Below, piece by piece: positions 16,150 to 25,628 of a DNA stretch of 27,964 nt. The stretch lies in the NCBI GenBank assembly GCA_022705465.1, contig JAKJEK010000001.1, positions 1-27,964 of the forward strand, in the 5' to 3' direction. Made by a program: the position numbers and the translations under genes. The DNA comes from Patescibacteria group bacterium. Its GTDB lineage: Bacteria; Patescibacteriota; UBA1384; XYA2-FULL-43-10; 1-14-0-10-43-13. How positions within the stretch are numbered: the first letter of the stretch is position 1; each line of letters begins with the position of its first letter. Below the pieces are notes generated by a model, which was not told the origin of the DNA, searched no databases, and was given only the letters and a program-made list of their open reading frames with translations.

Positions 16150-18384
16150 TTAAATGTTTACTTCGAAGATGTTACCATCGGAAAGTATCCACAATTTTTG
16201 TAATTTTGAGTTAACAACAAAGTCGTGAATTTGGGCGCCATCGAGAGTGTACTGATTTATAAACTCGCCGGTTTTGCTGAATTTGACAATGCGATTTTGT
16301 TTGTTGTCAAAGATATACAGATATGGAGTATCACTATTGGTAAATATGGAAGTTGGTTGTTCGATTTGAATATTAGGTACTGGAAGGGGCTTGAGTGAGA
16401 AGGTAGTTTCGTGTGTGCCACGAGTGAACTTGGTTACGGCAGTGTCGCTGTGAAGGACATAAATGTCGCCGTCTACGGCCAGGTCGATTGCATTGCTGAG
16501 TGATGGTTTACGTGAAGTAGTGTAAGCGCTGGCCTTTGAGTAGGTTGGTTTATGATCGGAGTATTTCCAGATCTGGTTTTCGGACGCATCCAACAGATAG
16601 ATGTTTGTTGAATAACTGCCGATTGCATTCGCGTTTTTCCAGATGCCTTGTTCGTCCTCCGTCGCTACTTCACTAAAGGTGCTGGTTAGTGGATCGTAGA
16701 GCAACACTTTGTTTTTATCGGTGTATATGAATACTTTATTGGTGTTGTGCGAATTCGTGAGGTCAACTGCGGTACCGTATTCTTTGCCAATTGAAGCGAC
16801 TAGTCGCGAATCCCAGTCTTGAGTATGGGTGGAATATATTTTCCCGTTATCACCTATTCCAAGAATTTCTGAACTAAAGAGGGTAAACTTTTTGATATTG
16901 TTGCCAAGTGCTGTTGCTGGTGACGAAGCGTAGACGCGTTCTGTCGCGGTTAGATTGTCGAGTGATAGTTGGATTTCTTTGACGAGTTGAGCGGAGCTGT
17001 CTTTGGTTGGAGCATATTCCAGCGATTTTTGTGCGGTCTCCATAGCTTGATACATTTTCTCAACTCCACCAGTTTTACCTAGGGCAACGTCCTCTTTGGC
17101 AGCGTTGAACAATACTCTGGCTTCATCGTATGATTTAGCAAGGGTATTCTCCTGTATCATTTGCTGCTGAGCTGTGCTTTTATTGTGAATTTTTAGGTAA
17201 ACACCTAAGACGAGAATGGCAATCAAAGTGGCATAAATATACTTGCGGTTCTGTGGTTTTGGCAGTGACCTGACAAATGAACCAATTCGATTAAGAATTG
17301 CTTGAACTGCTGGTGAAGTTTTCCCGACAATTTGACTAATAAGTGATCGGTAGCCGCTAGTTGTGTGTTGTTTTATTGTGTTAAGGGCGGAGGAGTCACT
17401 AATTTTGGAAGCCGCCTTGTGGGCAATTGGTTTTATGGCTGGTGAAATGTTGTCACTGATTTTTTCAGCACGTTTCTTGCCTTTACTGATTAATTCATGA
17501 CTTTTAGGGCCATACTTATCGTGCCAGGACTGTTGAAAGGAGCTGATTAAACGACCGGTGTTTTCCTTTGTCCAGCGATAAGAACTTGCGGTTTGTTTAA
17601 CGATTTTGTCCTGATACGGGGTGATATTTCGCCTGAACTTTTTCAAGGGTGTGTCGATGGGGTCGTCTAAATAAAATTGTTCTGGAAGATCATCCAAGGT
17701 TTGATTTGAAGCTTCTTTTAAATTGATGATTTCAATGGAGATGGCATTAAGATTGGTTACCTTCAGTCGTCTGAAATATAGGTAAAGTTCATTTATTATG
17801 GTTTTAGCTGTGCCATTGGCACTCATTTTTCTTAAACGGTCGAGCGAGAGGTGATTATATAGCTCGTTAGTGCCCAGAATAATGCGATCTCCTTCACTGA
17901 CTGATCCACTGATAACATTACTGAAGGCTTGTTTTGATGATGGCGGTTCGTGCAGGCTAGGGCGTTCAGTGATCGTAGAGATTTTACCGTTGCGATAGAT
18001 ATGGCCGGAGACACTTCCTGTTTGAGCGAGTAGGATTTCTTCGTGCGTTGCCAGACCGATGACTGCATTGAGATTGCCTATCCAATCTTTTTCACCACTT
18101 TGGGCTAAACTGCCGAGAGACTCATTAATCTTAACAATAATGTCTTCAAACAGCTCTTCAAGTGGTTTGTTGGGGTCATTGATTTCGTAATTATCAATGG
18201 TTTTGGTAATCGTTTTGGGGACTTTGGTTGAGGGAAACCAGGGACATAGGACCTCAATCAAATAGAAAAAGAATGCTTGGGGCATTTTCTCTTTATCGAT
18301 TTTTCCGCTGAATAAAAATCGGTCTGAGGTTTTTCCTCTAACCGTTAAATAGGCTGATCTAGTAATAATGTCAGATTTAGCCAT
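16150..18384 (-). CDS. Bitopic membrane protein: N-terminal PP2C/PPM-like domain, linker, TM, extracytoplasmic helical segment and NHL-like beta-propeller
   Basis: LNAVIG...ILLAQTG...IYRNGKI and GDRIILGTNEL fit a PP2C-fold pattern; TM YIYATLIAILVLGVYL; repeats such as AIDLAVDGDIYVL and YLYIFDNKQNRIVKFSKTG. GGAG upstream of ATG. Confidence 0.7.
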   Translation of the reverse strand: MAKSDIITRSAYLTVRGKTSDRFLFSGKIDKEKMPQAFFFYLIEVLCPWFPSTKVPKTITKTIDNYEINDPNKPLEELFEDIIVKINESLGSLAQSGEKDWIGNLNAVIGLATHEEILLAQTGSVSGHIYRNGKISTITERPSLHEPPSSKQAFSNVISGSVSEGDRIILGTNELYNHLSLDRLRKMSANGTAKTIINELYLYFRRLKVTNLNAISIEIINLKEASNQTLDDLPEQFYLDDPIDTPLKKFRRNITPYQDKIVKQTASSYRWTKENTGRLISSFQQSWHDKYGPKSHELISKGKKRAEKISDNISPAIKPIAHKAASKISDSSALNTIKQHTTSGYRSLISQIVGKTSPAVQAILNRIGSFVRSLPKPQNRKYIYATLIAILVLGVYLKIHNKSTAQQQMIQENTLAKSYDEARVLFNAAKEDVALGKTGGVEKMYQAMETAQKSLEYAPTKDSSAQLVKEIQLSLDNLTATERVYASSPATALGNNIKKFTLFSSEILGIGDNGKIYSTHTQDWDSRLVASIGKEYGTAVDLTNSHNTNKVFIYTDKNKVLLYDPLTSTFSEVATEDEQGIWKNANAIGSYSTNIYLLDASENQIWKYSDHKPTYSKASAYTTSRKPSLSNAIDLAVDGDIYVLHSDTAVTKFTRGTHETTFSLKPLPVPNIQIEQPTSIFTNSDTPYLYIFDNKQNRIVKFSKTGEFINQYTLDGAQIHDFVVNSKLQKLWILSDGNIFEVNI

Positions 18385-19072: not shown

Positions 19073-19126
19073 ACAAAAAAACAGATCAGTTGTTTTCGAG
19101 GGAAAACGGTGGATCTGTTTTTTTGT
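19073..19126. terminator. Long hairpin/bidirectional terminator overlapping the 3' end of the 1154-aa gene
   Basis: 15-bp perfect inverted repeat acaaaaaaacagatc (19073-19087)/gatctgtttttttgt (19112-19126), plus 9 inner pairs and a GAGG loop; 7-nt T tract on each strand. Confidence 0.75.
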
Positions 19127-22100
19127 TTGACGTATGGACTGGATGTTTTGGTTTAGCTGCTAGCTCCAGGTTGTTTTCCTGGGTAACAGTAGTTTGCGTC
19201 AGTCTTTCGACCTGCGAATTAATTCTTTTGAGTGTTGAGATAACCAACGACTTTGGCTCTGTATCCCGAGCATTATCACGCATCCAGTCCAAATTTGTAT
19301 TGACTAGTCGATCAATTATACGCGGAGGAAGCATTTCCGCCTTACCGTCAACTCTCAGCATTATACTTAGCGCATTTTCGACTTGTTGCCAGGGCACGTG
19401 ATTACGTTGAAGGTAGCCGGTGATAATGGTAGCTGCCTCATGGACATGCGGTTCTCTGGCAAATTCCTGATAGGTTCGTTTAAACGATAAGGCTGGTTGC
19501 TCAACCGGTTGTGGTCTGTGTTGGTGTTGTCTCGGTCTTTGTTTATCGTGCAGTTTAGCTTCCTGTGTCAGGGTTTGATAGTGTTCATTAACAGCTGCGA
19601 CAATGGCATTGCCTCTCACGTCACCTTCGTTGTTGGGTAGTAAGATATTAAAGGCTACCCGGATACTATCACGCAGTTGTTTGAGCGAGTAATCGGGAGG
19701 GAGAGCTAGGTAGGTTTTGAGAGTATCGATATCTTTGATTTGGATTCCAGCCTGTTCTGGAGCAATGGTGAGATTTTGAATTAGTTTTTCGAAGTTCTTC
19801 TGAGTATGGTTAAGCCTTTGTTGTTCGGCCGGAGGCAGATTGGAGATTTCATGGGTTGGTTGGTATCTTTTTTCTTCTCTGGCGCCGACTTGCACAAGAA
19901 CTCTCTCCAGTGCTTCTTTGGAAGTTAGCTTGGAGTCGAGTTCTTTGAGCCGTTTTGCCCTCCTGGTTAACTCGTTTTGTGCAACAAAGGTTTCGAAATC
20001 AGGGACTGGAGCGGAACCCAGTTTGACTTTACCGTCAATCTGATCGATAACGTGCTGATAGCGAGTGGTGGCCACTTCAACGAGTTTTTCTTGGGATATA
20101 TCATTGAATGCAACTTGTTTCTCTGGAGTTTCGTGTTTGATGGTACGGGGTTTTTTTGCGGCGGTCGCTGCGGTTGGCGGTTCCGGTGCCTCATGTGTGA
20201 CGGGCTCAGGTTGTTGTTCTGGCTGCCTTGCATCAGTAACTTCTGGTTTCGGTTGGTCTGTTTCAGTAGCTGGTTGACTGTCGTGTAAGCTCGATTCTTG
20301 CGTTGTGTGTTTTGGTTGTTGATTGGGAGGTGCTGTTTTGGTGCCTTGTACCGATGCCGGACTTTGTTGTTTTTCATAGAGTTCAAAAAGGGATTTGCGA
20401 ACGTTTTCCCATTCTTTGGTAGCAGTTTCTAGCCTGGCCTCTAACCTAGCTCTTTGATCGGTATTGCCTCTTGCCTGTGATATTTGATCTTCCAGGGTTC
20501 GCATGGTCTCTTCTTTGTGCTGAACAGAACTGTAGAGCATGGAAAATTCTTTTAAATTTTTCAGTTGATGCTCAGTCTCCTTTTTAGTTTTCTCTGCATC
20601 AAGATACTCCTTTTCTTTAGCAGAAAACTTGGCTTTATCTATGTAAGATGCTGATTCTATCTGATCCAGTTCGCCTTCCAATTTTTTCAGCAGGGCATTT
20701 GTTTCGGCCAGGGAGCTTCGTAGTTTTGCTAGCTGGCTGGCATTTTCTTGCACGAATTGGGCAAATTCTTTTTTGGTAGGGGGTGGTGCCTCTGGTGTAG
20801 CGGCAGGTTCGACTAACTCGGATTCAGCGGTTGACTGTTGACTGCTACTTTCGATCGTTGCTAGCTCCTCGTGGATGTTGCGCCAAATGTCCTGTCGTCT
20901 CTGATACATGGCATTATAGGTTTGGGCTACGTTATTCATTTGTTCAACGAATAATGCTACCTGAGTTCGGCTAAATTCTGCCGCTGATCCTGAGCCGGTT
21001 GCATTGTTGCGAAGGGCGCGCAAATTGTTTTGAAGTTGGCGATGCTGATGGACCAGATTTCCTAAATTTCTCTCAAGTCTTCTTGATTCAATAAATAATT
21101 GCTCAACTCTTGTTAGAGTTGTTATCTCCGTGCGAATCCGTTCTTGTTCTGTTAGCAAGGCCTGGCGTTGCTGGGCGATGGCTTCCCGTGTTTGAAGAGC
21201 GTCTGGTACTTGAAGTGCTTTTTCCTGTTCCTCGAGCTGTTTGAGTTCGGCATCAATAGCCATAGAGCGTTGCCGTAGTTCATAATAGCGTGATGTTTTT
21301 TCCCAAGCTTTTTCACGAAGTTCGTTAGTAATTTTGAATGGTAATGTCTCAGTTTTTTCTACCGGACGTTGGGCTTCGGGTCTTGTTTTGGTTTTTTCGG
21401 TGACAGTGGGTGCAGCTTGAGCGGGGCGTGTTTCGGATTGGGGTGGACGTGCAACTCGAACAGTATCATTATTTCTTAAGAGTCCGTCAACCACTTCGGC
21501 GCGAAGTTGTTCTTGCTGGATGTTGCCGCCTCGGGTGGTGGCAATTTCACCGGCTGCTTTCATAAATAGACCCATCATGGCGGAGCCAATGCCGATTTTG
21601 CCGATGGTGGGTAAGGCAGTGCCCATGGTGTGGACCAGGGATCCCCCCATTTTAAATGCTCCAGTATGACTAACTATGTCGCCTGGATTGTAGATAAAGT
21701 TAAAGCCATTAAAGAGTGAGCCAACCGTCCGATGTCCATGCTGGCCAACTCCCATTGGCAGGCCCCAAAGCAAGCCGAAGACGGCGGTGGTGGCAGCGCT
21801 AGCCACAGTGCGTTGGGTTTTCATTTTCTTCTCTAAGGCCATATGGGAATTTTCTTTTTCCAGAATTGCCGCTTCTGATTTTGATATTGTAATTAACAAG
21901 GGTTCAAGCGCTTGGGCAAAGGCTTCCTGGTCGATTTTTCTTGCTTCGAGTTGTTGTTCAAGTTCACGGATTTGTTTAATTGGCCCGTCTTCGATTTCTT
22001 TTAGAGCCTTGCGTTTCTCGTCTTCTAATTTAAGCCGTTCTTTTCGGCCGCGCATGAGATACTGCAGCGTTTCGAATCCGCCCTCAACAGCTGTTTGCAT

Positions 22101-22550
22101 GCCTAGGCTATACAACATCGGGGCGGCAATGAAAGCGGCACCTCCGCCAGTCAGAATGGTTGCGGTGGAGGCCAGAGCGGTGCCCGCAAGAATTTTACTA
22201 CCAACCTTGATAGCTTTGCCCCAGCCCGTCGTTTCGAGTTTGCGTCTGATTTTACCGACTAGTCCCTTACCATAGCGCTGTTCTAGGCACTTTTCTTCAC
22301 GGGTTTTAATTTGGCTGGTTAATTGGTCGGCAAATGAGAGCCTTTCGGCTTTTTGCTTTTTTTCGTTTTTTTCGTGATTCTCTGGAGGTATCGGTCGCGT
22401 TTCGTTGTGAGGTGGGGTGGGTGTGTTCAGCGTTTCCGGTAGTTTTGTAATATTTTCTGTGTCTTGGTTATGCGGATTTTCCTCATGCAATATAAGTGCA
22501 TTTCCGGCACTTGATTCTTGTGTGGGATTGTATCCTGGTCGTTCTCCCAT
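19086..22550 (-). CDS. Large hypothetical protein A (1154 aa): disordered N-tail, hydrophobic-hairpin/coiled-coil domain, long coiled coils, P/T/E/Q-rich linkers, helical C-terminal region
   Basis: Long ORF, GGAG 7 nt upstream of ATG, no signal peptide; residues ~70-335 align by eye to protein B. Confidence 0.85.
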   Translation of the reverse strand: MGERPGYNPTQESSAGNALILHEENPHNQDTENITKLPETLNTPTPPHNETRPIPPENHEKNEKKQKAERLSFADQLTSQIKTREEKCLEQRYGKGLVGKIRRKLETTGWGKAIKVGSKILAGTALASTATILTGGGAAFIAAPMLYSLGMQTAVEGGFETLQYLMRGRKERLKLEDEKRKALKEIEDGPIKQIRELEQQLEARKIDQEAFAQALEPLLITISKSEAAILEKENSHMALEKKMKTQRTVASAATTAVFGLLWGLPMGVGQHGHRTVGSLFNGFNFIYNPGDIVSHTGAFKMGGSLVHTMGTALPTIGKIGIGSAMMGLFMKAAGEIATTRGGNIQQEQLRAEVVDGLLRNNDTVRVARPPQSETRPAQAAPTVTEKTKTRPEAQRPVEKTETLPFKITNELREKAWEKTSRYYELRQRSMAIDAELKQLEEQEKALQVPDALQTREAIAQQRQALLTEQERIRTEITTLTRVEQLFIESRRLERNLGNLVHQHRQLQNNLRALRNNATGSGSAAEFSRTQVALFVEQMNNVAQTYNAMYQRRQDIWRNIHEELATIESSSQQSTAESELVEPAATPEAPPPTKKEFAQFVQENASQLAKLRSSLAETNALLKKLEGELDQIESASYIDKAKFSAKEKEYLDAEKTKKETEHQLKNLKEFSMLYSSVQHKEETMRTLEDQISQARGNTDQRARLEARLETATKEWENVRKSLFELYEKQQSPASVQGTKTAPPNQQPKHTTQESSLHDSQPATETDQPKPEVTDARQPEQQPEPVTHEAPEPPTAATAAKKPRTIKHETPEKQVAFNDISQEKLVEVATTRYQHVIDQIDGKVKLGSAPVPDFETFVAQNELTRRAKRLKELDSKLTSKEALERVLVQVGAREEKRYQPTHEISNLPPAEQQRLNHTQKNFEKLIQNLTIAPEQAGIQIKDIDTLKTYLALPPDYSLKQLRDSIRVAFNILLPNNEGDVRGNAIVAAVNEHYQTLTQEAKLHDKQRPRQHQHRPQPVEQPALSFKRTYQEFAREPHVHEAATIITGYLQRNHVPWQQVENALSIMLRVDGKAEMLPPRIIDRLVNTNLDWMRDNARDTEPKSLVISTLKRINSQVERLTQTTVTQENNLELAAKPKHPVHTSNKKTDPPFSLENN

Positions 22551-22571
22551 AAAACTTCTCCGTTGGTTTGG

Positions 22572-22892
22572 TTATCTTTGTTGTTTGGTTAGGCTAAGAA
22601 TCTCTTCTTTGAAAGCTAAAACTTCCTCGGCGGCAATTTGATCAAGGTCTATACCCTTATCAAACAAGGCCTTCTTAACTTTTTTGGCATTTTTTTCTTC
22701 GGTAAGATCTTCGAGAATACTGGTGCCTTCGGTTAAATCATTTACCCGAGCTGATATCCTACCAAGGATTATTTTAACCATTAATTCGGAGATTCTCGAT
22801 TTTTGAAGTTGCGGTATATTATCAATACTGAGCAGCTCAAATATGCTTTTCCCAAGAACCGAATTATTAATCGTACCGTTTGAATTATTCAT
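22572..22892 (-). CDS. Small helical protein, DUF5663-like (copy 2)
   Basis: SIFELLSI...RISARV..L....GIDLDQIAAEEVLAFKEEILSL; clear paralog of 25210-25566; ends 21 nt before protein A. Confidence 0.8.
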   Translation of the reverse strand: MNNSNGTINNSVLGKSIFELLSIDNIPQLQKSRISELMVKIILGRISARVNDLTEGTSILEDLTEEKNAKKVKKALFDKGIDLDQIAAEEVLAFKEEILSLTKQQR

Positions 22893-23027
22893 TGTGTTGC
22901 AAAATAATTAAATTTGTTATTGCATTTGTCGTTGGTGAATAATCAGGATCCTTGTCGTGGACAGGTTTAGGAGGTTCTGGCTTTTTAAGTTTTATCTTTA
23001 GAGGGAGAGGACAATCTTTTTGTTTGC

Positions 23028-25190
23028 TTAATTGCCTGGTGGTTTTGGGGAATCCTGTCCAGAAGGACCTGACGGCGAAGGCGGGTCGTCGGGTTTCGGG
23101 GAACCGGGGGCGGTTGGATTATCTGGTCCGTTGCCGTTTTGGTTGGGGTTGTCATCATTTTCTAATTTTTCGATCTTGGTGATCTCGGTAAGACCGGTAT
23201 CCGGATCGTCTTTACGTTCGACCACATATCCCAGTTTGCGAAGAGTATCAACCAACCATTCACCAAGCTTATTGCCAGTGGAAAACGGTCCAATTTTCTT
23301 TTCTGTAATTGCGCTCTGTAAACGGTTTAACCACTTTGCTTTTTCCTGTTCGTTTGTTTTGATCTCGTCTGGCAAATATTGGTCGTGTTCGGTGTTGCTG
23401 GGCTTCTCGGGTTTGAGTTTGTCTGGCAGCAGACCTTTTCGTTCGTAAAAGTCCCGGATGTCTTTCCGGTGTCGTTCAATGTCGCGTTCATAATCGGCGA
23501 GAATCCGGCGGTGGGTTTTGAGTAGCTTGTCTCGGTCTGGCGATTCGTCGTATTTTTCTATGCGCTGGATGTGTCCCTTGATACGTTCTGCCCCTCGTTT
23601 CATGTCTTTGAGATCCTGGTACTTTATCAAAGCACCGTGGTATTCGTCGCGCAGGTCTTTTTGCTCTTTGGTTAGTTTTGCAATTCTATCGTTTAGATCT
23701 TTAATTTTTTGTCTATCTTCGTCGGTCTTGTCCTGTTTTTTAAACAACTCCTCTCTTTCTTTGCGAAAGTTGGATAATTCTTCATCTATCTGTTTTAGTC
23801 TGTCGCGAATTTCATCTTCTTTTGCTGCCCGTTCTTCCATAAATTCATCAAAGGTGTCGAGTTTTTTCTCGGGTGAGATAAGTTGTGGCTCTGGCGCGGG
23901 AGGAGAGTCTTCTTTTTTCTTTTCTGGCGCGGGTGGTGTTGAGGGTGGTTCTGCTGGGGGAGTTGGGGCTTCTGGTTTTTTACTGCCATTGCCACTGGGC
24001 GGAGCGAAGTCGGGCTCACCGTACTGGTATTTTTCATTTTTTTCAGAAATTTGTTTTGGTTTTTTGATTGCAGAGTAGAGAAGCCCGCTAAAAGCAGCAA
24101 ATAAGCCGACGTAGCCTTCGGCAGGTAGGCCGTGGCCAAGTACGTGGCCAGTATCACCGCCAAGAAGATGGAACGGGTTAAAGTGCCCCATTGTCTCAAC
24201 GTTGCTTGGGGCAGCACCTTCATATAGGAATTCCGCTCCTTTTCTAATCGACCAAAGGGTGTGATGATATCTGGAGCCGTCCGGAATTGCTTGACCATCA
24301 AAATTTTGGGCGCCAAGAGAAACGCCATTAAGGGCACCGACGGCGATAGTTGCATATGCTCCATATTTAACACGAAAAGCGTGCTGGGCTTTATGCAAGC
24401 TGGCAAGCTGATTGCTTTGCTCAATGACTTTTTCCTCAGTTCTGGCAATATTGGCAACAATTTCTCTGGCCCATTTTTGATATTCGTCATAAGACATTTG
24501 ATCTTGTCTTTTTTCGAGGTCTTGGTAGCGCTTGATCTGTTGCTCCAGTTCACAGTGAGCCGCGTTCATTTCCAGACGGACACTTCGTTCTTTTGAGACT
24601 TCCCCATATATGACTTGTCCGATTTCCATAACACCTTCAATTGCGGTGCGCATAGCTCGCATGTGAAGGTATGGAGTAAGAAGTAGGGCTGGCGTGCCGT
24701 AAAACCCGGTTACAAGTGAGGCTCCGATAGTGCCAAGGGCGATTTTTCCGACTGCTTTGACAAGACGGCCTATCGGTTTTTCGTTCAACAGTCTGGATAC
24801 CTTACCTTTCAAGCCTTTTCCGTAGTGTTGTTCTAGTCTTTCGTTCTCACGTTTTCTGATTGTGCTTATGACATCGGAGGCGTTTTGCAAGCGCCATTCT
24901 CTTTTTTCTTCTTTTTTTTCTTCGGTTTGCCCGATTTGTGTTTCAGGTTTTTTGGTTTGCTGAGCCCGATTTGGTCCCGAAGGTCGTGGGTTCTCGTCGA
25001 TATCGCTATCGTCATCATCGGGGTTGGCTAGTTGATTTCGTTTTTCCCCGCGCTCACGCCGATTTCTTTTTTGGTTCTTACGCCCGTTTGACGGCTCGGC
25101 TAACGCACCTTCTTCTGGAACTGTAAAAGGAGCATCGGTTGTGTCGTCGGTTCTGTCCGGGTTTGGTGAGCCGCTAAGTTTTTCTGCCAT
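23028..25190 (-). CDS. Large hypothetical protein B (~720 aa), paralog of protein A in the N-terminal domain; Pro-rich linkers and charged coiled coil
   Basis: ATG at 25190 (MAEKLSG) preceded by GGGAGGG; the track's TTG start at 25253 overlaps the upstream gene and is less likely. Confidence 0.85.
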   Translation of the reverse strand: MAEKLSGSPNPDRTDDTTDAPFTVPEEGALAEPSNGRKNQKRNRRERGEKRNQLANPDDDDSDIDENPRPSGPNRAQQTKKPETQIGQTEEKKEEKREWRLQNASDVISTIRKRENERLEQHYGKGLKGKVSRLLNEKPIGRLVKAVGKIALGTIGASLVTGFYGTPALLLTPYLHMRAMRTAIEGVMEIGQVIYGEVSKERSVRLEMNAAHCELEQQIKRYQDLEKRQDQMSYDEYQKWAREIVANIARTEEKVIEQSNQLASLHKAQHAFRVKYGAYATIAVGALNGVSLGAQNFDGQAIPDGSRYHHTLWSIRKGAEFLYEGAAPSNVETMGHFNPFHLLGGDTGHVLGHGLPAEGYVGLFAAFSGLLYSAIKKPKQISEKNEKYQYGEPDFAPPSGNGSKKPEAPTPPAEPPSTPPAPEKKKEDSPPAPEPQLISPEKKLDTFDEFMEERAAKEDEIRDRLKQIDEELSNFRKEREELFKKQDKTDEDRQKIKDLNDRIAKLTKEQKDLRDEYHGALIKYQDLKDMKRGAERIKGHIQRIEKYDESPDRDKLLKTHRRILADYERDIERHRKDIRDFYERKGLLPDKLKPEKPSNTEHDQYLPDEIKTNEQEKAKWLNRLQSAITEKKIGPFSTGNKLGEWLVDTLRKLGYVVERKDDPDTGLTEITKIEKLENDDNPNQNGNGPDNPTAPGSPKPDDPPSPSGPSGQDSPKPPGN

Positions 25191-25209
25191 ATTCCCTCCC
25201 GTTTGACGC

Positions 25210-25566
25210 CTAGTTTTGGTCGTCGCCAGCAGCCTCGTCTTCTTTGGCAGCAATTAGGTTGATAATTTCGATTTTATAGTTGAGAACTTCTTGAGTGGCG
25301 ATTTGGAGTGGGTCGATTTTATGTGACTCGAAGAAATTTTTTATTGCATTGTCATCATCTTGGTCGAGCAACTGTTCGAATTGGCGGATTTCCGGTTCTT
25401 GCAAGCGGTCTAAGATGCGAGCAATGATGCGGTTTTCTACTGTTTGGACCATATCGTTAATCATTTTTTGTTTTGTTTCCTCGGGGGCGTCTTTGAGATC
25501 CAAGAGTTCGAAAATGTTTTTCTCAATTAAGCCTTGAGGATCAACATCATTAATCCATGATGGCAT
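25210..25566 (-). CDS. Small acidic helical protein, DUF5663-like (copy 1)
   Basis: AGGAGG 5 nt upstream; NIFELLDL...ENRIIARILDRL.E.EIRQFEQLL...IATQEVLNYKIEII resembles the CPR-enriched DUF5663 pattern as I recall it. Confidence 0.82.
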   Translation of the reverse strand: MPSWINDVDPQGLIEKNIFELLDLKDAPEETKQKMINDMVQTVENRIIARILDRLQEPEIRQFEQLLDQDDDNAIKNFFESHKIDPLQIATQEVLNYKIEIINLIAAKEDEAAGDDQN

Positions 25567-25599: not shown

Positions 25600-25628
25600 A
25601 TTATAGATCGTTGATGTGTAAAAGGCAA
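25600..25628 (-). promoter_or_regulatory. sigma70-type promoter for the duplicated module
   Basis: Minus strand TTGCCT (25628-25623), 17 nt, TATAAT (25605-25600); leader of about 27 nt containing AGGAGG. Confidence 0.55.

Follow-up and report, generated by a model that had tools for sequence, protein, structure and literature searches.

Two small-large gene pairs form one compact array

The window analyzed here is the whole of a 27,964-nucleotide (nt) stretch from a Patescibacteria group bacterium (GenBank assembly GCA_022705465.1, contig JAKJEK010000001.1, positions 1 to 27,964), and the subject of this report is an array of four tightly packed, operon-like genes on its minus strand, between positions 19086 and 25566. 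They lie in the order S1-L1-S2-L2, where S and L denote a small and a large protein. An earlier reading made from the letters and open reading frames (ORFs) of the stretch (the sequence-only reading) had described this small-large-small-large anatomy, and every detail of it that we checked was correct. The features of the array are as follows.

25600..25628, minus strand: promoter-like site TTGCCT-17-TATAAT at the head of the array; the best consensus match in the region (10/12), a pattern match only
25210..25566, minus strand: S1, 118 amino acids (aa), acidic (isoelectric point, pI, 4.2), predicted all-helical; DUF5663 (Pfam PF18908, E = 4.5e-8); AlphaFold2 (AF2) model with four main helices
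23028..25190, minus strand: L1, 720 aa; disordered leader (aa 1-85), conserved N-domain (aa 86-400), Pro-rich linker and coiled-coil tail
23991..24935, minus strand: N-domain of L1, aa 86-400; from an AF2 model, its family of 136 cluster representatives, and the charge and hydropathy profile
24747..24905, minus strand: region of L1 predicted to contact S1, aa ~96-148 (interface residues 11-63 of the modeled segment)
22572..22892, minus strand: S2, a 106-aa DUF5663 paralog of S1
19086..22550, minus strand: L2, 1154 aa; same N-domain (aa 56-345), then a long coiled-coil and Pro-rich tail
21516..22385, minus strand: N-domain of L2, from jackhmmer and profile matches
19074..19125, minus strand: terminator-like hairpin overlapping the L2 stop codon and followed by a U run

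Each small gene stops shortly before a large one, as had been read from the letters; the gaps are 19 nt (S1-L1) and 21 nt (S2-L2), and each contains a motif resembling a Shine-Dalgarno sequence (GGAGG/GGAGA). L1 starts at an ATG behind a GGGAGGG Shine-Dalgarno sequence, and this 720-aa form is the database record; an alternative, mechanically called L1 ORF from a TTG at 25253 would encode 741 aa and would overlap S1. The promoter-like site lies 34 nt upstream of S1. At the 3' end, the hairpin has a minimum free energy of -29.4 kcal/mol (z = -6.97), and none of 200 shuffled sequences was equally stable; its long loop kept it from being picked up by a simple terminator scan. The 135-nt spacer between L1 and S2, scanned on the minus strand, contained no terminator- or promoter-like site. 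The view that one promoter candidate heads the array and a strong terminator closes it thus agrees with the signals found.

The small proteins are paralogs (34% identity over 92 aa, BLAST E = 4e-12). The large proteins share an N-terminal domain, being 27% identical over 462 aa (E = 2e-29), with the similarity confined to an N-terminal domain of ~290 aa, the N-domain. Both relationships had been proposed from the sequence.

The small proteins belong to DUF5663

A Pfam search of all four array proteins returned one significant family: S1 matched DUF5663 (PF18908), a family of unknown function, at 34 bits, above the gathering cutoff of 23.7 bits. S2 is too diverged for the Pfam model and gave no match to it; it is tied to the family by its similarity to S1 and by a locally built family profile (E = 1e-27). 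More widely, 16 of 18 aligned small partners matched the PF18908 model at an E value of 0.1 or lower. These proteins tend to be acidic (pI 4.2 for S1 and 5.5 for S2, with a median of 4.5 for 26 partners), and S1 is without a hydrophobic leader.

AF2 predicts S1 to be a helical bundle (predicted local distance difference test score, pLDDT, of 87). Fold searches stayed at noise level (Foldseek against the PDB, E of at least 1.1; VIA-align, Z of at most 6.5), a profile search of the PDB found nothing below an E value of 0.08, and word-indexed homolog searches with L1 and S1 returned only the queries themselves. The structural neighbors of S1 in the AlphaFold Database (AFDB) are uncharacterized; a few carry the automatic names "Trigger factor C-terminal" or "DUF2059," which we treat as a lead only. 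DUF5663 as a replacement for trigger factor was ruled out, since each of the 21 relatives searched, this genome among them, has trigger factor itself. DUF5663 was not mentioned in any paper of the literature searched.

The pair is inherited as a unit in Patescibacteria

The linkage of S to L is near-absolute among close relatives, and it is reciprocal. A lack of linkage elsewhere, which the sequence-only reading had listed among the things that would refute it, was looked for and not found. An ORF of 596 to 2043 aa comes after 16 of the 18 small genes in family-level relatives, at a distance of -71 to +42 nt; conversely, all four large-family members that were looked up in metagenomes have a small gene directly upstream, recognized by the S profile at E values of 1e-17 to 1e-25. 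Phylum-wide, at 40 loci, a same-strand ORF of at least 450 aa lies directly before or after 40 of 53 small genes, compared with 63 of 245 other ORFs of 80 to 200 aa; several distant loci have IF-2 as their large ORF of ~590 aa upstream, and the preceded-by-large count partly reflects a different conserved context.

The whole S-L-S-L array is kept in another genus (G013), beside the same divergently oriented phosphoribosyltransferase (PRTase) gene. Between the genera, S1 is nearest to the S1 of G013 (54% identity) and S2 to its S2 (41%), and the duplication therefore predates the split of the genera. The proposal that each large protein has its own small partner, with the pair inherited as a unit, is supported by these observations. 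A mirror-tree test lends weak support to co-diversification of S and L: the Mantel r was 0.43, a value reached by none of 2000 permutations and inflated by identical duplicates and relatedness, and nearest neighbors agreed in 7 of 26 cases.

Of 301 genomes sampled across the phylum, 83 (~28%) contained the family by the small-protein profile, often as several copies or arrays. The source genome has further small-plus-large pairs on contigs C120 and C65, and on contig C97 a large-then-small arrangement lies directly before mraZ. The pair is restricted to Patescibacteria, widespread in them, and undescribed in the literature searched.

The large proteins share a predicted membrane-inserting N-domain

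In the large family, a disordered leader (median 73 aa) precedes the N-domain. The AF2 model of the L1 N-domain, built from a 62-sequence alignment, has a pLDDT of 85 and a predicted template modeling score of 0.79. It runs from basic helices into a Gly/Ala hairpin, a long antiparallel coiled coil, a hydrophobic helix, a small β element, and a last hydrophobic helix. The hairpin is predicted to be helical, a 30-residue charge-free Gly/Ala stretch with Gly/Pro at its center, and the β element carries an invariant Gly and His. The domain as a whole is basic (pI 8.9 to 9.6); its K/R-rich flanks precede the hairpin and the second hydrophobic helix and follow the last hydrophobic helix, and the β element is K/R-poor. 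Judged by the positive-inside rule, this charge distribution makes an N-in/C-in topology, with the β element outside, the most likely one.

A profile of the N-domain found 136 cluster representatives among 1.84 billion proteins, all of them large but for a few shorter entries. The modeled fold had no match in the PDB (E of at least 0.47), and TM scores did not exceed 0.32 against AFDB clusters or 0.31 against the ESM Atlas; the best VIA-align match, the coiled coil of HD-PTP (Z = 10.2), was below the helical noise level. A VirB6/TrbL polytopic channel subunit of a type IV secretion system was considered and rejected, as neither L1 and L2 nor their relatives matched a TrbL/VirB6 profile in Pfam.

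A phage origin was also considered. Phage tape-measure proteins resemble L in being large coiled-coil proteins with Gly/Ala hydrophobic segments, preceded by the gene for a small tail-assembly chaperone. The top match in a PDB sequence search was a tape-measure protein, at a nonsignificant E value of 0.34, and an ESM Atlas feature search with the N-domain reached phage hypothetical proteins at 0.76, under any useful level. The resemblance goes no further: searches of PHROGs and NCBIfam gave no match, no phage genes lie nearby, and the DUF5663-large family is chromosomal and phylum-wide. With no PHROGs family and housekeeping neighbors, a phage remnant was rejected; so was an anti-phage defense system, as PADLOC assigned none of the four proteins to a family.

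S1 is predicted to bind L1 just before the hairpin

A model of the S1-L1 complex gave values of 0.64, 0.64, and 0.62 for the interface score ipSAE, compared with 0.00 for the best of three controls. The mark set for this score is reached by 58 of 80 solved complexes and by 2 of 110 mismatched pairs, counts that hold only roughly here, where the complex model used its own alignments. An interface between the partners, which the sequence-only reading had implied, is thus predicted and passes its controls. The modeled contact covers L1 residues ~96 to 148, which takes in the basic helices and stops where the hairpin begins; the model supports binding of S1 to these helices but does not show it.

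In hhalign comparisons, the contact stretch and the hairpin were the only part of L common to more distant large partners, with probabilities for this core of 89.5% for a glycosyltransferase-linked class and 96% for an ATPase-linked class. The charges of the partners also match, an acidic S (by its median pI) facing the basic N-domain.

The tails of L are variable and argue against a toxin

Beyond the N-domain, L is made up of coiled coil and linkers rich in Pro; a crude heptad count puts the coiled-coil-like share of the tails at 20 to 27%. They diverge fast. The fraction of alignable pairs was 4% for tails versus 39% for N-domains, and L1 shares 30% identity with its syntenic orthologue across the N-domain, with no alignment possible past that point. 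No Pfam family was found for the tails of L1 or L2, and an ESM Atlas feature search with the L2 tail gave no usable match. Among 108 family tails, two carry a Metallophos domain and one a GT9 domain; the remaining 105 are without a recognizable enzymatic or toxin domain. One full-length protein has a weak DnaJ match. Two large-family members (P0087, at L063 1771-6153, and P0017) end in a calcineurin-like phosphoesterase domain (E = 6e-23 for P0087), and the GT9 tail of another member was recognized at E = 4e-16.

At one locus (L068, G142:C3, 3652-12446), two S-L modules are adjacent. Their small proteins and the first 420 aa of their large proteins are 100% identical, and unrelated tails of 896 and 1149 aa follow these identical heads. 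The arrangement suggests recent gene conversion or exchange of tail cassettes.

A conserved N-terminal part with a variable C-terminal part is also what a polymorphic toxin would present, L has a small predicted binding partner encoded upstream, and the sequence-only reading had offered a toxin-immunity system as one option, in which, as in a toxin-antitoxin pair, S would neutralize a toxic L. We consider this highly improbable. L1, L2, and the 108 tails contain no toxin domain, and the PADLOC, PHROGs, and NCBIfam searches were negative. Polymorphic immunity genes follow their toxins; here, neither L is followed by a candidate immunity gene, as S2 comes 135 nt after L1 and a terminator after L2. 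The modeled contact of S is with the conserved N-domain rather than the variable tail, and L is far larger than type II toxins.

About a quarter of related pairs precede VirD4-like coupling ATPases

At 5 of 12 family-level loci, the pair lies 1 to 3 genes upstream of two tandem VirD4/TraG-like ATPase genes and a gene encoding a Sigma70_r4/HARE-HTH protein; the same neighborhood recurs at 9 of 40 phylum-level loci, or 14 of 52 loci combined. In five genomes that were checked, these pair-linked VirD4-like genes are the best conserved of the 2 to 4 such genes in each genome, and the large protein of one ATPase-linked locus (L020) has the full N-domain of L1 and L2. Downstream of some pairs (L020 5756-12381; L021 7147-14576) is a conserved cluster encoding a small coiled-coil protein, two unknown proteins of ~260 to 320 aa, a VirD4-like ATPase, a ~170-aa protein, a Sigma70_r4 plus HARE-HTH protein, and a second VirD4-like ATPase, with no virB4 nearby.

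These neighborhoods raise the possibility that L is an exported substrate of a Patescibacteria type IV machinery, reached through the VirD4-like ATPase, with S as its secretion chaperone or adaptor; L would then insert into a host membrane or deliver its tail. Several known systems have a comparable layout. In Agrobacterium's type IV secretion system, VirE1, a small acidic helical chaperone, is encoded directly upstream of, and coupled to, the large VirE2 that it binds. The Eag (DUF1795) chaperones of type VI secretion, with their prePAAR/transmembrane domain (TMD) effectors, and Lap1/Lap2 of type VIIb secretion, with their LXG toxins, are likewise upstream-encoded small partners that bind the conserved N-terminal region (transmembrane or other helices) of large proteins with variable C termini. 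S is similarly small, acidic, helical, and directly upstream of L, whose N-terminal region is conserved and whose C terminus is variable, and many related loci lie near genes for VirD4-type ATPases. The analogy is one of layout: no sequence or fold similarity links the pair to VirE1-VirE2, L differs from VirE2 in having hydrophobic helices and a coiled-coil tail, and the Eag and Lap partners have other folds and secretion systems, with toxin domains and downstream immunity genes that are absent here.

By analogy with VirE1-VirE2, Eag-TMD, and Lap-LXG, then, the overall design of the pair would suit export, and the rare recognizable tails (Metallophos, GT9, and the weak DnaJ match) are those of enzymes acting in a cytoplasm. 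On the other hand, the window contains no secretion gene, of type IV or otherwise, and no VirD4-like gene, and all that the genome shows is a VirD4-like fragment, located on a different contig next to genes resembling those of mobile elements. There (C56, 1-10237), the contig end truncates a VirD4-like gene, after which come a 276-aa replication-relaxation-like gene and ORFs of 901 and 1097 aa; the region may represent a mobile element and not the chromosomal cluster of coupling ATPases seen in the relatives. The charge pattern of the N-domain fits a resident polytopic protein, and 105 of the 108 tails offer no recognizable enzyme or toxin domain. A survey of type IV secretion in Patescibacteria, which does not mention the DUF5663-large pair, found thousands of VirD4 homologues, mostly away from virB4 and possibly exapted, and reported the coupling-protein gene of S. 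epibionticum to be nonessential (PMC12102498). Export is in our judgment possible and tentatively worth holding. Its fuller form is somewhat more doubtful: here the type IV apparatus of Patescibacteria would find its missing cargo in the DUF5663-large pairs, S would present L to the VirD4-like ATPases, the hairpin domain of L would insert into the host membrane, and the interchangeable tails would go into or onto the host.

The candidate chaperone-effector or host-interaction module of the sequence-only reading fares accordingly in part. The linkage of the partners and the S1-L1 model agree with it, as does the probable episymbiotic life of the organism; a secreted or host-acting L does not follow, since a resident protein accounts equally well or better for the positive-inside pattern and the window lacks a secretion gene.

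A second DUF5663 context and the genome setting

DUF5663 genes have a second phylum-wide context, in which rpsA and infB are followed by 0 to 2 large hypothetical genes and a DUF5663 gene, facing fmt/def; it was seen at L082, L085, L086, L090, L093, L096, L104, and L105. This is the same place as that of SEML1_0161-0163 of "Candidatus Southlakia epibionticum" ML1, a Saccharibacterium in which a large hypothetical protein likewise adjoins DUF5663 genes. The order there is large-small-small, between infB and fmt/def, and the likeness to the S-L pair is one of gene context. In the transposon sequencing of strain ML1, SEML1_0161 and 0162 were scored GD/ES/ES and called essential, and 0163 was scored NE/GD/GD; the essential genes are thus a DUF5663 gene and the 767-aa gene before it (PMC10633639, Table S1). 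In that study (Wang et al., Cell 2023, PMC10633639), the family was marked as core and as enriched in Patescibacteria.

The source genome is ~0.95 Mb in 158 contigs and 81% complete. The closest relatives of its RadA (58 to 65%) are metagenome-assembled genomes labeled "Candidatus Saccharibacteria"; by this marker, the organism is a Saccharibacteria-like Patescibacterium, and its description as a probable episymbiont is reasonable. Housekeeping genes surround the array (the dcw cluster, RecJ, RadA, PBP1a, TyrRS, ArgRS, and tRNA-Pro), with the dcw genes ~10 kb away. A 744-aa ORF at 16150-18384 (minus strand), between ArgRS and tRNA-Pro, has no Pfam or NCBIfam family.

The position of the array ~10 kb beyond the dcw genes, together with the pair of this genome that lies directly before mraZ, bears on a third explanation: that S, instead of being a chaperone, belongs permanently, as a subunit or regulator, to a membrane-anchored coiled-coil scaffold organizing division or cell shape. 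The coiled-coil content of the tails would suit such a scaffold, a related pair is essential in co-culture, and the weak fold echoes were all of long-helix proteins (BAR, SMC, and Alix V domains). However, a core scaffold is as a rule conserved and present in one copy, unlike a family with about five paralogous pairs per ~1-Mb genome, an orthologue of L1 that is 30% identical in the N-domain with a nonalignable tail, and neighborhoods that vary among a PRTase gene, a glycosyltransferase, coupling ATPases, and infB. We regard this explanation as unlikely.

A proposed chaperone or adaptor for a membrane-inserting envelope protein

The reading that we favor, with a probability of roughly 0.5, is that S is a dedicated chaperone or adaptor and L a membrane-inserting envelope protein, the two forming a Patescibacteria-specific two-gene unit. 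S, small, acidic, and cytoplasmic, would be made just before L from the same transcript and would bind the basic amphipathic helices directly preceding the weakly hydrophobic Gly/Ala hairpin of L. It would thereby keep the membrane-inserting N-domain soluble, hand it to the membrane, or both; in many genomes, it may also hand L to the adjacent VirD4-like coupling ATPases. L would sit in the cell envelope through its N-domain, with the hairpin and two transmembrane helices in an N-in/C-in arrangement and a conserved His/Gly element of ~60 residues outside, and would carry a long, fast-evolving, cassette-like coiled-coil tail. The window holds two anciently duplicated copies of the unit in one operon-like array.

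What chiefly separates this proposal from export is where L ends up: the charge pattern favors residence in the cell's own membrane, and the neighborhoods elsewhere, together with the cassette-like tails, favor export via coupling ATPases. The anatomy of the genes, their paralogy, their linkage, and the distribution of the family are observed directly, and binding of S to L and its site are predicted by modeling; the chaperone role, the topology, and the envelope function are conclusions that we draw from these patterns, and several points weigh against them. Binding of S to L is a model, with an approximate score calibration, and conservation at the interface does not significantly exceed that of the remaining residues (P = 0.07 and 0.29). 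The helices in question are only weakly hydrophobic (Kyte-Doolittle 1.4 to 1.7) and one of them is charged, so that membrane insertion is a prediction only. S has no relative of solved structure that would establish a chaperone fold. The essential pair of S. epibionticum, in reverse order beside infB, may be a functionally different subclass.

Implications for Patescibacteria

A large part of bacterial diversity belongs to the Patescibacteria, which live attached to other microbes; to our knowledge, few of the proteins that form or exploit the contact site have been identified. This analysis adds a controlled complex model, the conserved S-L-S-L synteny, a pair of modules with identical heads and different tails, and the core of S-contact region plus hairpin that distant partners share. 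In the one Saccharibacterium that is genetically tractable, a related arrangement is essential. If DUF5663 were assigned the role of binding partner to a new domain that inserts into membranes, thousands of "hypothetical" genes would gain an annotation, and envelope biogenesis or host interaction in these bacteria would become accessible to concrete tests. Should L instead prove to be type IV cargo, multicopy, fast-evolving arrays such as the S-L-S-L operon would be a repertoire for host range or host manipulation.

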